Source: Escherichia coli (GTDB taxonomy: Bacteria > Pseudomonadota > Gammaproteobacteria > Enterobacterales > Enterobacteriaceae). From it: a stretch of DNA of 64,000 nt. The DNA lies in NCBI RefSeq assembly GCF_003991155.1, contig NZ_CP031297.1. One strand, given 5' to 3'. Shown here piece by piece: positions 18,001-24,000 of this stretch. A program made the position numbers. How positions within the stretch are numbered: position 1 is the first letter of the stretch; each line of letters begins with the position of its first letter.

Positions 18001-21000
18001 AAAGTCATCAGTTGGCGATTCCTGGTCAAATAAGCGCTTTCACAAGCCGGTAGGCCTCGATGTATTGCTGGCCTGTACTGCGAGTAAGGTGCCTGAACAT
18101 CTGGTCGAAGAACTGAAAAGACGGGGCAGTTGATGCGTCTTTGAGCTTTGCACCCGAAAAGGGCAGTTTGAGCGTTCCTGTTCACACAGCTCTCGTGGAA
18201 CAATCAAAGTGAGGAGGGAATACCCTCCCACTTTCTCAGAGGCCTTCATTGAGGGTTGCTGAGAAAGTGAATTTTGTCCTCTCTGAGGGCGAAACGTGCG
18301 ATAGCTGGTCGCCAAAAACAAACAGCATTCAACCTCAGCCTAAGGGCGCACTGCGCCTGACAGGCTCTGTGTGCCCAAGTTACTTTAAGGAGCACACATG
18401 TCTCATCTGAACAATCTCAAATCCGTAATGATCTCTCTCGCCGCCGAACATAAGCTGCCTGAAATCTACCAGGATGACATCACTACCGATGTGGAGTCTC
18501 TGGATCGATTCGATGGTTTACGTCTGGTCTGGCTGTTGCGGTCTTGCGGCAGCGTATTGGTGCCAGCGGAAGTTGGCGTTAATCCGATCTATATCACCCA
18601 TTGGTTGTGGTCTAACCACGGTCAACAGGTGGTTCCATTCTCTGTGGATACCCGCACGGGGTTGATTGAAAAAATCGACTTCGAGCAAGCTGAAAAGCTG
18701 ATCATGCAGATGCCTTGCAACCTCTCTTCATTGCAGAACAAGGAATACTTGGTTGACCAGGTAAACCGAGTATTGCAACGAGGTTGTGAAATGCGTATCT
18801 GGGGTATCTTCGAGTCTCCAAGCTCGGTGGAATCCGTTGGTGGTTGGAAAGAGTGGCAGAGCTATTTCAGCTCTACTGGGAATCGACTGATGGCCGATTT
18901 CGTTGGTAAAGCCATTCGATTCACCAACCCTCGATAAATCGCCGTTCAACCATTAACCCTAATTAACCCTATGGGGCTCCGATAGCCCTGAGGGGACGGG
19001 GCTCCGCAATCGCAATAAGGAGTCCCTATGAAAAACCTATCAGCTTTGGAAGCAGTTCTTGACTACGACAAACCTTCTCGACGTTTTCTTGATGAGCTCA
19101 ACGAAAACCAGATGAAGGATTTGTCCGGGGAAATCTTCGCCAAGCTCTACTGGAGCAAGCGTAATCCCCAGTGGTACGAGAAAGACACCAATCGGCTGTT
19201 TGCACGACTTCGTTGGGTTCAGCGCATCATCAAGAAGCGCTTGAAAACCGGCAAGGTTAAACCTGAACTGACAGAAAATGGTTCAGTGATGGAGCGCTTC
19301 AACTTCCCTTATGGTGACACTCTCGATTTCTTCCATCGGTACTTGCGACATCCCAAATGGGAGGTTGTGTATCAAGAATCGGGGTGCAGTGCCTTTTGGA
19401 AAAATGAAGCAACGCTTGAGCTATGCACCTACTGCGAAGGTGATGTGGTCATGATGAAGGCTCCTGATGAAGCAACCTTCTTTCGTGATTGCAATCGCCT
19501 TAGCTGGTGGTATGCAGATAACGCTTGATCTTAATCCCTAACCAGGGGCGAACCGGCCCCTGATGGGAGCATGGTGCGCCCCATCTATGATGGAGGACGC
19601 CATGTTCAAATCATCAGTATGCTCCTACGAAAACAGGGGGCCTTACGGAAACAACAAGTACCGAGGCAACTGCTCGGGCTTTATCGTTAAAGACTTCATT
19701 GAGTCTTACATGAGAAAGCCGAACGGGCTGGTGGCAGACCCAAGTGTTGGGGGTGGCTCTAGCATCGACGTTGCCAATGAACTTGGTGTCCGTTTCAAAG
19801 GGACAGACTTGCATCAGGGGTTCAACCTGTTGCGGGATGACTTCCTTTCGTTCCTCGGAGAGCCTGCACACCTGATCTGGTGGCACCCTCCTTACTGGGA
19901 CATGATCCAGTATTCAGGTAAGCAGTGGGGCGAGCCCAACAAATGGGATATGAGCCGCATGAATTTGCCTGAGTTCGTTGAAGCCCTTGAGCTGGCCGTT
20001 ATGAATATTCATGACGCCTGTGAGCGAGGAGGGCATTACGGAATCCTCATGGGAAACCTGAGGCGCGATGGGGATTATTTCAACCTGTCCAGCCTTGTGG
20101 AACGTATCGCACCTGGGAAGCTGGTGGATGAGATCATCAAAACACAGCACAACTGTGTGAGTGACCGAACTCAGTATTCCGGGAAGCTGGTGCGTATCGC
20201 CCATGAAAAGCTGTTGGTGTTTCGTCGTAACGACGTTGCCTCATCGCTCTGTCTTCTTGCTGCCGTACACCGTCGAGCAACCAATATGGTTTCGACTACG
20301 TGGAAAGCTGCAATACGCCGAACCCTACAGGGGAAAACGTTGAAGCTGGAGCAGATTTACAAAGAGATTGAACCCTACGCAAAGCATCGAGAGAACAACC
20401 ACTGGCAAGCAAAGGTCAGGCAAGTTCTTCAAGATGCCAGGTTCTTTATTCGCATCGAGGTAGGTGTCTATGCACTTGCTGAGTAGCCCAACCGGGGCGT
20501 GACATCCCGGAGGGGATTGGTCGCGCTCATCAACAACAAAGGAGCGTGACCATGAACGTACAACTTCAAGCCAGCAACAATGTGCTGTTGGCGCAAATCG
20601 AAAGCAAAGGCCTCACTGTTGAAACGCATTGTCGCAGTGGCTTTTGTGGCATGTGCCGGGTTCGTCTACTCGAAGGTCAAGTGGCTTATGACGAGACGCC
20701 CATCGCATTTGTCAAAGAAGGGGAAGTGTTGGTTTGCTGCGCTAAAGCAAAAACCGATGTGACCTTGGAAATTTAACCCATCCGGAGGAGCCTTTCCTGC
20801 GGGTGGGGCTCCTCTATCCATTACGAGGAGAAACACTATGTCTATCAATACCAAAGTTGAACAAATCGCATACGGTCATGCTACCGCTCTAGTGCTCAGT
20901 GAACTGGGCCAACAAGAGAATTGGTGCAAGGCTTATGAGTATTTGTCTGAGTGTGTAGAACGGGGAGACGAACCTGAGGATCTGGTCGTTTGGCAACCGT

Positions 21001-24000
21001 TTGAGCACTGGGAATGGAAAGACATTCTGGAGCAGATCGAGAGCGAAGCCGAGTCTCTGCTTTCGACTATTAAGTCGGTTTTAGGCTTGGCCCACAAAGG
21101 CATCATTCAGTCAGCAATTGACTGCTCTCTGGATTCGGACATGACCCAGCTTGACCTGATTGGAATGGTCGAGCTCGGAAGTGAAATCGAAGATGGGGAG
21201 TGTGCTGGAGGTGGCTATGCAGCTTAACCGATACACGGCCAGGGAGTCTGACAAAAGTCGGATACTTCGGACCATAGGCTGGTGCAAGCGCAACCACCTT
21301 ACACTTGCCGGTCTTCCATACGAGGACAATCTTGCAGGAAGTGATGGGATCAGCATAGAGATCATCACTCCTCCTGGTATGTCGCGGGAAATGTTGGAGC
21401 AAGCCGTCAGAGAGGGGTATTCAGAGCGAGATGTCGTAAGGCATCGCATTCTGGAGTGCCCTGTCGGTTGGTTCATGGAAGCTGATGGCAAGGCATTTGA
21501 TCATGAAGTGTTCCACGATTACGTGGTGGCTCATGGTTATGGCGAACCTTCCAGCGAAGCCTATGAGCTGGCGGAGCGGTGGTTCTGGCAGGGCAACGAT
21601 TATGCGTTGATAGCTGCGGAAATAGTTGCTCGTGATCTTTGTGTTCGTGATGACGAAGATGAGGACTGATCCTATGGATGCTGTAGCGCATATAGCAGCA
21701 GATAACCTTGTACCGGCATGTGGAGGTGCAGAGAAGCCGTTTACCGTTAGTGGTAGACAGTGGCTTTACTGCTATCACCCAGCCAGTGGGAGGCACTGCT
21801 ACTTAGACCTCGATAATGACCGTCCAGTCTGGCATCGAGGATTTCATCCTGCTTTTCATCCTGAGCTTGAGTTCGCTGATGAAGCTGAGTTGCTTCGACC
21901 AGTTGAGCGAAAGCCTGACCATGAAGAGCTGGAGGATTTTTACTTTTAACCCACGGGGCCGCTCTTCCTGATGGGAGACGGTCCTCCATTCTCAAAGGAG
22001 AAGACCATGAAAGATCACAGTCAAACGATTGTGTTCCCTGGGAACAATGTTGAATCACTTGCTGAGGCTAACGCCATGTTGAGCGCTGTGTCGGAAGATG
22101 CACGTAAAGCCAGCAATACGGAAGACAAACGTGACCTTGAATCGCTTCAAGGCTGGCTGGAAGAGAACATCAATTCTCAACTGGCAGGCGTGAAGTAACT
22201 ATGACTGTAACCCCACTGGGGGCTTCATGCCCCTGTGGGGGCATGGTGCCCGTAAAAGGAGTCACCATGAATGCAGTGAAGATGATCCAGAAGGAAAACC
22301 AGCTTGAGCTGCCGCTTTTCTTCCTGGATGAAGAGCCGAAGACCGCAGAAGTCATTCCATTTGAGCCAAAGCCTGAATGGACTGATGATGAGGTAAGGCA
22401 GTTACGTGATGGGCTTTTATGGCATAGCCTTAGAGTCCTTGCTGATGGTCGAGCTGGAAGTGAAATCAAGCAGGAAACGATGGCTTGGGTGATGTCCGAT
22501 GAGGTACATCCATTCTCATTTGTGGTCTGCTGCGATGAAGCAGGTTACGATCCATCTGGAGTAAGGGAAGGCGTGAAGTCTATCCTAAACCGCTTAGCGC
22601 GGGTTAAAGCGGGGGGTTAACCCCCTGCTTTCCCAGTGGCATCGACTTTCACATGTGAAAGTTTGTGCCCCTCGGAAAGCAAGATTTTGCTCTCTGTCGA
22701 GAGTGAATAGTGAGGTAGCTGGCCTCCCCAAACAAACAGCATTCTACATAACCCTTGGGGGATCACTGCCCCTCGGGCTGGTGGTTCCCTGACAAACATG
22801 GAGCCACAACTATGACTACTCTTGCCAGCTTTGCGAATCCGATTTCTGTTATTCAACGCTCACCAACCAGTGGGGTGTTTGGCACAAATCAGTTCGTAGG
22901 AGACAAAGAGGGATTTGTACAAAAGGTGCTCGGAAAGTGGTACTGCAATCCAGGGAATACCATTCCCGTTGAGAGCATGTCCCACCTTGAGCAGGCGGAG
23001 AAACTGTATGACTTCTATGTCAAGTATCTCCAAGTGAAAGAAAAGATCTCTGTGAACCTTGGCCGGGTGCTGCATAAGCTGTACAGCACTGGTTCTATCA
23101 AGGAAGCAGAGATCGTGCTTGAAGCAATAAAGGCTCAGGCTGGCGTAACAGCTTGAGCAATCTACTAACCCTAAACCGGGTGCATCCGCCCGGTTCGGGA
23201 CGTGGTGCGCCCCCAAACTATTTGGAGTGCATCATGGAAAAACATAACCTCAAATCCGGATTCAGCATCTATTTCGCTGACGTCCATTTCGAGAAACAAG
23301 TCTACGCATTCGGCTCAGGACTTGGCTTCACCTCTGTGATTTACGCCTACTCGCTGGGCCGAGATCCGGAAGAAGCTGAGAAGCTGGCGCTTGAAAAGTA
23401 CGACTCTGACGAAACGAAGGTGAAGAAGGTGCATGTCAATCTGGCTCGCAGCCAGGACATCAACCGCTACACCTTCCCTGAACAAATGGCTGGCTTTGCT
23501 AATGCCATTCAGTCTCACGGCATCGCTGTGAACTGAGAACCACTTTAAACCCATCGGGGCCATTACTTCCCGATTGGGACGGTAGTGGCCTCTCAACCGA
23601 AAGGAGAGAGCTCATGGCTACTATCGTAAACACCAAGTTAGGAGAACATCGAGGCAAGAAGCGCGTCTGGCTGGAAGGCCAAAAGCTACTGCGTGAAGGT
23701 TACTATCCTGGCATGAAGTATGATCTGGAGCTGAAAGATTCCCAGGTTGTGCTTCGCGTCAAAGAGGAGGGTAAGTTCACCATCAGTAAGCGTGAGCGCA
23801 ATGGCCGGGTGTCTCCAATCATCGATCTGACCGTGCAGGAGCTTGCTACCGTTTTTGACGGTGTAGAGATGCTCCGCGTGTTCATCCGTAACGGCGCAAT
23901 TGTGATCTCTGCTCACCATCAACAAGAGCGAGTGATCGAGCGCGTCAACCGGCTTATCAGTAAGCTGGAGAATGGAGAATCGCTTTCGGTATGCAGCCTC

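Follow-up and report, generated by a model that had tools for sequence, protein, structure and literature searches.

What is the role of the seven small genes that lie between a ferredoxin gene and a cytosine methylase gene in the backbone of IncC plasmids? These plasmids are important vehicles of resistance genes, those for carbapenemases included, and their unusually broad host range relies on evading the defences of recipient cells. The question is raised here by a stretch of 64,000 nucleotides (the window) from Escherichia coli assembly GCF_003991155.1, contig NZ_CP031297.1. The window belongs to the backbone of a multidrug-resistance plasmid of type IncC. A segment of 3.2 kb that includes the seven open reading frames (ORFs), named O1 to O7 in this text, has an identity of 99% or more to 621 plasmid records, and almost all of these are typed IncC, MOBH, MPF_F and conjugative. 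The genes fall in the interval vcrx102-108 of plasmid pVCR94. They have been catalogued as part of the backbone in a well-known family of plasmids but have not been studied, and their transfer-regulated accessory or establishment context is already known. An earlier note on this DNA had read them as a run of strongly acidic proteins and candidate DNA mimics that counter host defences. We lean, with somewhat less than even confidence, towards a different reading, in which O1 to O7 are small accessory protein-binding cofactors of the establishment or DNA-processing machinery of the plasmid and not stand-alone DNA-mimic restriction inhibitors. The mechanistic steps that go beyond the reality of the genes, their regulation, their synteny and a shared tail motif are ones that we infer.

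The gene map was built from the annotated reference plasmid p_bpro_s102a_NDM1 and the pVCR94 vcrx numbers given in the literature. On the plus strand it reads ssb-bet-exo (vcrx091-093), vcrx094, vcrx095 (a VWA gene), four hypothetical genes, dcm3, yfaE, O1 to O7 and dcm1. The earlier note had placed seven consecutive small ORFs between the ferredoxin and dcm, and all seven are indeed on the plus strand, exactly between yfaE (20552-20776) and dcm1 (23614-25239). O1 (vcrx102; 20838-21227; 129 amino acids, aa) is strongly acidic, all-helical and confined to IncA/C-like plasmids. O2 (vcrx103; 21217-21669; 150 aa) has a start that overlaps the O1 stop by 11 nt, and it ends in DDEDED. O3 (21674-21949; 91 aa) consists of a Cys/His core, a variable acidic linker and a conserved tip (...EELEDFYF). 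The mildly acidic O4 (vcrx105; 22007-22198; 63 aa) is paired with O5 (vcrx106; 22267-22620; 117 aa), which belongs to a large unnamed family. O6 (vcrx107; 22812-23156; 114 aa) is basic and specific to IncA and IncC plasmids, while O7 (vcrx108; 23234-23536; 100 aa) is near-neutral.

A Shine-Dalgarno-like sequence precedes each of the seven ORFs. Substitutions were scored by codon position against the IncA plasmid pRA1 (94% nucleotide identity), and the third position was found to be their main site in 7 of 7 ORFs (for example, 5/5/20 in O2 and 2/1/11 in O7). By this bias all seven are real genes under purifying selection. Synonymous changes outnumber non-synonymous ones in five of the seven, the exceptions being O1 (10:12) and O4 (3:5). 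The Aeromonas plasmid pKAM339 (~77% nucleotide identity) keeps O1, O2, O4, O5 and O7 at 58%, 75%, 71%, 80% and 67% amino-acid identity, lacks O3 and carries an unrelated ORF at the position of O6. The Vibrio plasmid pVPH2 keeps the order v099-dcm3-yfaE-O1-O2-O4-O5, with dcm3 76% identical and O1, O2, O4 and O5 40-59% identical. The O4 homologue stands directly before the O5 homologue in both pKAM339 (71%) and pVPH2 (50%). O1 and O2 overlap by 11-14 nt in four plasmid lineages (11 nt in the window), and by this conserved overlap of start and stop the two genes are translationally coupled. The O2 start is best placed at 21217, where GGAGGT lies five bases upstream and where homologues begin MQLNRYTA; the start at 21193 given by the Prokaryotic Genome Annotation Pipeline would yield 158 aa. 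Cys23, His76, Cys81 and Cys142 are invariant in O2. In pVPH2 the O2 homologue is the N-terminal domain alone (94 aa), and a second, longer O1 paralogue of 211 aa (L007, 6314-6949; 28% identity over the N-terminal 93 residues) is found directly after the O5 homologue. A toxin-antitoxin reading of O1-O2 was rejected, since each of the two proteins is acidic and no toxin family matched either.

How are these genes expressed? O1 to O7 are mid-operon genes of the conjugation regulon, within the 11-kb vcrx098-vcrx113 operon (~18.2-29.5 kb). This follows from four features of the region. An AcaCD-binding box lies in the vcrx098 promoter (18148-18177, plus strand; TTTGCACCCGAAAAGGGCAGTTTGAGCGTT) and differs very little from the vcrx114 box at 29549-29578. 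Immediately before that next box the operon ends in a strong intrinsic terminator hairpin (29520-29550, plus strand; AAAAAGCCCTCCTTCGGGAGGGCTTTTTCTTTT). On the plus strand between 18.0 and 26.7 kb, neither a sigma-70-like promoter nor a convincing terminator was found. Published RNA sequencing (RNA-seq) provides the fourth. Chromatin immunoprecipitation with exonuclease treatment (ChIP-exo) placed AcaCD sites upstream of both vcrx098 and vcrx114 in pVCR94, with the vcrx098 peak and motif at 75267-75295 (PMC4207636 Table S3). RNA-seq values in wild type, acaCD deletion and complemented strain were 541/2/2377 for vcrx102, 396/14/2104 for vcrx103, 250/0/1178 for vcrx105, 171/0/1483 for vcrx106, 207/0/960 for vcrx107 and 256/2/3963 for vcrx108, and without AcaCD every gene of vcrx098-vcrx111 shows next to no expression (0-14), as against 960-8357 in its presence (PMC4207636 supplements). 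The same data hold a Rockhopper operon call for vcrx105-106, and they show that the operon of the hde (host-defence-evasion) genes is likewise AcaCD-dependent, with P_vcrx087 rising from 5 to 3445 (PMC4207636 supplements). With their own AcaCD box and promoter at 18148-18177, O1 to O7 are outside the vcrx087-093 transcript.

One of the seven genes had been called on the wrong strand. At the position of O3, RefSeq and the pVCR94 annotation give a minus-strand ORF, vcrx104 or WP_002210529 (21747-21989), which we judge to be a mis-call. Compared with pRA1, the plus-strand frame of O3 has 17 synonymous and 7 non-synonymous changes, whereas the minus-strand frame of vcrx104 has 6 synonymous and 18 non-synonymous changes, for the most part at the second codon position. 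In strand-specific counts vcrx104 reaches 15, 0 and 48 in the three strains, as against hundreds to thousands for its neighbours (PMC4207636 supplements). The independent annotation of plasmid pKAZ3 calls the plus-strand O3, and the plus-strand protein has homologues with 49-88% identity in the alignment (54-88% among full-length ones). Because the substitution pattern, the strand-specific expression, the pKAZ3 annotation and the protein homologues agree, plus-strand O3 is the real gene. The strand error has spread through hundreds of RefSeq plasmid records and is corrected here. The conserved core of O3 comprises C16, C33, H35, H41, C42 and H58. Its homologues keep this core, vary in the length and sequence of the linker, and end in the tip [D/E/x]-[F/L/C]-[Y/F]-[F/W] in all cases except P0199 (...SLWV).

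The tip of O3 recurs on proteins of the neighbouring hde region. The tip rule used in this analysis asks for four or more D/E within the final 12 residues together with two or more F/Y/W within the final four. It was applied to every stop-to-stop segment of 60 aa or longer in the six frames of the whole window, 430 in all. Exactly five of the 430 carry such a tip, all on the plus strand: Vcrx090, the anti-restriction partner of Vcrx089 (10722-11630; ...EQEDHFF); Bet, or Vcrx092 (12316-13305; ...EEEGAEGSYY); Exo, or Vcrx093 (13368-14378; ...EEVETFYW); the DUF3150 protein Vcrx094 (14578-15855; Pfam DUF3150 E 4e-91; long acidic tail to ...DDDGDYFF); and O3, the only one of the seven ORFs to share the feature. 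No description of it was found in the literature searched. The tips are conserved in orthologues (loci L020, L021, L022, L023 and L024 among those compared), and they are alike within one element and different between elements. Those of IncC are aromatic pairs or triplets. Those of pKAM339 read ...EDLFF, ...AEWYE, ...SSWW and ...NDLYF, and all four in pVPH2 end x-Y-F (...EDSYF, ...DGNYF, ...ESAYF, ...QDCYF); the Vcrx090 orthologues among them end ...EDLFF and ...EDSYF. Pseudomonas alcaligenes pMRCP2 has D-F-C-C/V on Exo, on the post-AAA protein and on the DUF3150 protein, and Aeromonas hydrophila pK522-MOX has ...VDFC, ...FAFY and ...AGFY. Further DUF3150 proteins end ...PFAF, ...VFSF, ...SFFF and ...PFFY. 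In Vcrx094 and its eight compared homologues (9 of 9), F/Y/W fill two or more of the last five positions. The final residue is aromatic in seven, and two end in Y-F; that of pMRCP2 ends in D-F-C-C. No such tip was found in any of the AAA+ and VWA proteins of the cluster.

A folded domain, a disordered acidic linker and a terminal peptide that co-varies within each element together suggest that the tips may act as docking peptides for one shared, co-evolving receptor. The model for such a peptide is the C-terminal tip of the single-stranded DNA-binding protein (SSB), an acidic docking sequence that reads D-D-D-I-P-F-COOH. O3 and Vcrx094 would resemble it in having a folded domain, a disordered acidic linker and an acidic-hydrophobic terminal peptide. 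The tips described here differ from it in having two or three aromatic residues (D-F-C-C in Pseudomonas) and in being spread over five different proteins. It is possible, though doubtful, that they define an unrecognised hub-and-client network in MOBH elements, in which Vcrx090, Bet, Exo, the DUF3150 protein and O3 dock on one receptor in the fashion of the SSB tail. If so, the host-defence-evasion machinery of IncC would have O3 and, by synteny, O5 as new components, and a mechanistic role would emerge for the DUF3150 and CobS/CobT-like genes.

The candidate receptors are the MoxR-type AAA+ protein Vcrx089, the VWA protein Vcrx095 and the plasmid SSB. The first two are candidates because they are the only cluster proteins that never carry a tip. 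Vcrx089 has AAA_5 and CbbQ_C domains and Vcrx095 a VWA/CobT_C domain (annotation and homologues), and in this they would correspond to MoxR AAA+/VWA pairs such as CbbQ-CbbO and RavA-ViaA. In such pairs, the metal ion-dependent adhesion sites (MIDAS) of the VWA proteins bind acidic ligands. In the published screen, vcrx094-095 were not required. The plasmid SSB (11691-12221) has a canonical DDDIPF that is not terminal; nine residues lie beyond it. The SSB of the distant pMRCP2 (L022, 4176-4721) likewise extends past DDDIPF and ends ...DDDIPFREVPFLCMI. The free C-terminal Phe of SSB is normally required for partner binding, and a capped tip of this kind would be unusual.

O5 leads to the same gene cluster by a different route. 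An exhaustive HMMER scan found 374 cluster representatives of its family at E<=1e-3, with the core motif W..D..LR...W..SD..PFSF.CC..G.DP..LR, and neither the O5 profile nor 92 members gave a match in Pfam, PHROGs, NCBIfam or PDB. In five independent contexts an AAA+(CbbQ_C)/DUF3150/VWA trio has an O5-family gene as the direct successor of its CobT-like VWA gene: the metagenomic loci L012 and L014, the short contigs L008/L009, Pseudomonas aeruginosa pMKPA34-1 and P. alcaligenes pMRCP2. In L012, L013 and a Comamonas plasmid, the next gene after the O5-family member encodes a toprim primase. In IncC plasmids, O5 is 4.5 kb downstream of the VWA gene and separated from it by intervening genes. Because the neighbourhood of the family is conserved, O5 is, by gene order, a conserved part of the cluster where the hde genes of IncC are found. 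The label 'topoisomerase II' that O5 carries in some GenBank records was rejected as a legacy mis-annotation with no supporting domain. Apparent fusions of the family to other domains were also rejected, as the long hits (fn3-rich, ligase-like) are spurious low-complexity matches.

O5-family genes also adjoin a dcm3-like methylase, in the Comamonas plasmid and in pMKPA34-1, and this raises the possibility that the small proteins serve neighbouring enzymes instead. They would then be subunits or regulators of enzymes from their own operon, namely dcm3, YfaE, dcm1 and an 817-aa protein with the annotation PAPS reductase, and would tune the DNA modification or nucleotide metabolism of the incoming plasmid. 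The orphan methylase-like dcm3 (vcrx100; 19602-20486, plus strand) has a Pfam N6_N4_Mtase and a DpnI_C-like domain. The yfaE-like 2Fe-2S ferredoxin gene (vcrx101, plus strand) is known from Pfam Fer2 (E 1.7e-10) and from the RefSeq annotation. Similarly, dcm1 (vcrx109, plus strand) is an orphan C5 cytosine methylase gene by RefSeq annotation and in PMC7498323, which also gives dcm3 its name. The order dcm3-yfaE-O1-O2-O4-O5 is kept in IncC, IncA, pKAM339 and pVPH2, and the invariant Cys/His sets of O2 and O3 could bind metal, with a ferredoxin alongside. Against this, O5-like genes in most other contexts come after the VWA gene and have no methylase close by. The Pseudomonas and Comamonas elements with the methylase have neither O1 nor O2, and no domain typical of known partners or regulators of methylases came to light. 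A role as enzyme subunits or regulators is fairly unlikely in our judgement.

The reading as cofactors of the establishment machinery draws on the hde locus itself. O1 to O7 lie 6 kb downstream of vcrx089-093, the only experimentally proven host-defence-evasion locus of IncC (PMC7498323). That locus acts in the recipient upon entry; Vcrx089-090 counter type I restriction, and Ssb, Bet and Exo repair Cas3 breaks (PMC7498323). O1 to O7 resemble the hde operon in plasmid, strand and AcaCD dependence, in the tip that O3 shares with Vcrx090, Bet and Exo, and in the presence of the O5 family in the same cluster elsewhere. They differ from it in being on a separate P_vcrx098 transcript and in not being depleted in the transposon screen that defined the locus (PMC7498323). 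The contextual half of the earlier note's idea therefore holds: the genes are near the hde locus, lie between two orphan methylases and are under the same AcaCD control, and the O3 tail and O5 synteny point the same way. Once AcaCD is present, O1 to O7 are expressed along with the conjugation genes and the hde operon. They would serve the Hde recombination and anti-restriction proteins, the CobS/DUF3150/CobT-like AAA+/VWA module and the orphan methylases. O3 may be a client or adaptor of the Hde machinery through its tip, and O5 may work with the AAA+/DUF3150/VWA module. O1 and O2 might bind and mask a basic, probably nucleic-acid-binding, partner, and O6 and O7 would be lineage-specific add-ons.

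Does the charge of these proteins argue for DNA mimicry? O1 has an isoelectric point (pI) of 4.06 and a net charge of -20 (26 D/E and 6 K/R in 129 aa; -0.155 per residue). The values for the other six are O2 (pI 4.68, net -14), O3 (5.02, -9), O4 (4.57, -5), O5 (4.82, -7), O6 (8.69, +2) and O7 (6.05, -2). Among 33 neighbouring backbone proteins O1 ranks 1st in acidity, O3 3rd, O2 4th, O4 7th and O5 10th. When seven of the 33 local proteins were drawn at random, they were as acidic on average as the run in ~2% of permutations, and the first five gave P ~0.2%. The local enrichment of acidity is real, but 'seven strongly acidic proteins' overstates it: O1 alone is strongly acidic, O2 to O5 are moderately so, and O6 and O7 are not acidic. 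The long acidic tail that the earlier note had seen on the 14578-15855 product, Vcrx094, is present, with 33 D/E against 5 K/R in the last 100 residues. Acidity is conserved in the O1 family (pI 4.05-4.85) and not in the O5 family, where 92 relatives have a median pI of 5.0 and 10% are basic. Another very acidic small ORF, with a charge density equal to that of O1, lies outside the run at 30877-31095 (72 aa, pI 4.25, net -11) and adjoins a yfbR-like 5'-deoxynucleotidase gene.

The earlier statement that none of the proteins matches a nameable family is borne out against Pfam, PHROGs, PADLOC, NCBIfam and PDB sequences. O1 to O7 and the annotated minus-strand ORF gave no match in Pfam (E<=1), PHROGs, NCBIfam or PADLOC (E<=0.1), with the anti-restriction families ArdA, Ocr and Antirestrict included. 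PDB sequence searches with all seven (O3 and O5 as profiles, the others as single sequences or profiles) gave nothing below E 0.002, and the weak matches in them are to designed repeat proteins. Among 5.8 billion clustered proteins, O1 has 21 relatives and O2 has 14, all of them from IncA/C-like elements. The note had proposed structure prediction as a check for DNA-mimic surfaces; among solved folds, those of DNA mimics included, the AlphaFold models of O1 and O2 have no counterpart, and known DNA mimics are in none of the result lists. Because known mimics are structurally diverse, with unrelated folds, the missing fold match weakens the mimic idea and still lets it survive.

EcoKI- and EcoBI-type enzymes are the targets of ArdA and of T7 Ocr. 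Like those proteins, O1 to O7 are small proteins of a mobile element expressed around DNA entry, and the pI of O1 is in the very acidic range of ArdA and Ocr. Unlike them, O1 to O7 show no sequence or fold similarity to a mimic and have a lower charge density, and five or six of the seven have no mimic-like charge. The published genetics, moreover, found no protection from EcoKI or EcoBI by an O1-O7 plasmid without vcrx089-090. That plasmid is pKAZ3, whose O1 to O7 are 100% identical to those of the window; deletion of vcrx089-090 alone raised its restriction 424-fold by EcoBI and 906-fold by EcoKI (PMC11602122). By themselves, O1 to O7 are therefore not enough to withstand classical type I restriction. 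What is left of the DNA-mimic reading concerns O1 alone and leaves out the classical type I enzymes as targets: O1, possibly with O2, would be a DNA- or nucleic-acid-mimic decoy that inhibits a DNA-binding defence protein of the recipient other than the classical type IA restriction enzymes. The rank and conserved charge of O1, its small, helical and confident model, its co-expression with the transfer and hde genes and the unrelated folds of known mimics speak for such a decoy, which we hold to be decidedly unlikely. Since no family matched, two of the seven are not acidic and acidity is not conserved in the O5 family, mimicry is unsupported beyond the charge of one protein. A role as accessory proteins of establishment or defence evasion is plausible.

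Several observations weigh against the reading of O1 to O7 as cofactors of the establishment machinery. The O1 and O2 families are tiny, so that their models are built on shallow alignments, and the O2 model was confident in 1 of 5 runs. Transposon insertion sequencing (Tn-seq) of pVCR94 transfer into Vibrio cholerae O395, which has type I restriction-modification and type I-E CRISPR-Cas, found depletion only in vcrx089-093, in a comparison of Cas+ with Cas- recipients that tests CRISPR evasion and is no clean test of anti-restriction (PMC7498323). Bet/Exo-rescued derivatives of pVCR94 lost 9-24 kb from the exo-vcrx094 junction through recombination between copies of the repeat rptI and were still transmissible (PMC7498323). 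To judge from the repeat copies at 14.4, 18.3, 22.7, 26.5 and 32.7 kb, the 14-24 kb deletion classes would remove the whole O1-O7 block. Natural loss is seen in pNDM-US, of a successful IncC lineage, which is typed conjugative and lacks 18807-29636 (10.8 kb, from inside vcrx098 to the vcrx114 promoter, both methylases included). Because the operon is lost in pNDM-US and apparently in the transmissible pVCR94 deletants, any contribution of O1 to O7 is therefore conditional or redundant.

Might the seven genes then be conserved but functionally marginal cargo of a long operon, with no detectable role in defence evasion or establishment? The state of pNDM-US fits this, as do ~100 further IncC-type records that match the block only through the repeat, and the absence of O3 and replacement of O6 in pKAM339. 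In addition, vcrx107 and vcrx108 (O6 and O7) came up as hits in an exclusion screen, but their deletion had no effect (PMC11493245). Against it stand the purifying selection on 7 of 7 genes, the order O1-O2-O4-O5 kept across lineages despite a protein identity of only 50-60%, and the conservation of the O3 tip and O5 family far beyond IncC. We regard mere cargo as very unlikely. Only vcrx089-093 have so far been tied to IncC defence evasion, and the authors of both functional studies anticipate further factors. For that search, the present analysis takes the small genes nearby off the list of classical mimics that block type I restriction, and it ties O3 and O5 to the Hde/CobS-DUF3150-CobT cluster through a docking-type tail and gene order. 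The O3 strand correction, the O5-family synteny and the shared, co-varying tips are modestly new.

The repeat that mediated these deletions lies within the O1-O7 block as well. A structured intergenic copy of it (rptI; Roy et al., 2020) with repeat families D1 and D2 separates O5 from O6 (22621-22811, plus strand). A partial copy of its 3' module is found in the O6-O7 spacer (23174-23216, plus strand) and is 98% identical to 14519-14561 (family D5). Copies at 9565-9721, 14379-14577, 18185-18397, 22621-22811, 23174-23216, 26360-26591 and 32685-32796 recur about every 4 kb on the coding strand. The repeat is modular and hairpin-rich, with a conserved hairpin GYGRTAGCTGGYYRC followed by CAAAAACAAACAGCA, and an alignment of four copies shows compensatory changes in the stems. 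It matches no Rfam family and has no -35/-10 promoter or terminator consensus on the plus strand. As it is transcribed within long operons, a function in RNA processing or RNA stability is possible, as is one as a single-strand DNA site.

Structured repeats between gene groups, and co-oriented small ORFs with ssb and orphan methylases, are also features of leading-region anti-defence islands with single-stranded DNA promoters (Samuel et al., 2024; PMC11541004). The O1-O7 block appears unlike these islands in several respects. Its genes are vcrx102-108 of 152, tens of kb from the origin of transfer (oriT), which is beside vcrx001. Their expression depends on AcaCD with no recognisable Frpo, and the repeats have no -35/-10 consensus. 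On an IncC map that we take to be ~120 kb in size, the distance from O1-O7 to oriT is ~78 kb one way and ~40 kb the other way, so that the block is not within the first few tens of ORFs from oriT. The literature searched held no statement on the direction of IncC transfer.

Two minor observations concern the surroundings of the operon. The reference plasmid carries a group II intron (ltrA; L001, 21053-22969) just past the operon terminator, and the window is without it, with the junction at 29551/29552. The plasmid also has homologues of two nucleotide-pool genes, the YfaE ferredoxin gene (20552-20776) and a YfbR 5'-deoxynucleotidase gene (L001, 23414-24019; ~29996-30601 in the window), and has no ribonucleotide reductase. 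YfaE maintains the cofactor of NrdB, and the pair of homologues hints at manipulation of the deoxynucleoside triphosphate pool at plasmid entry.

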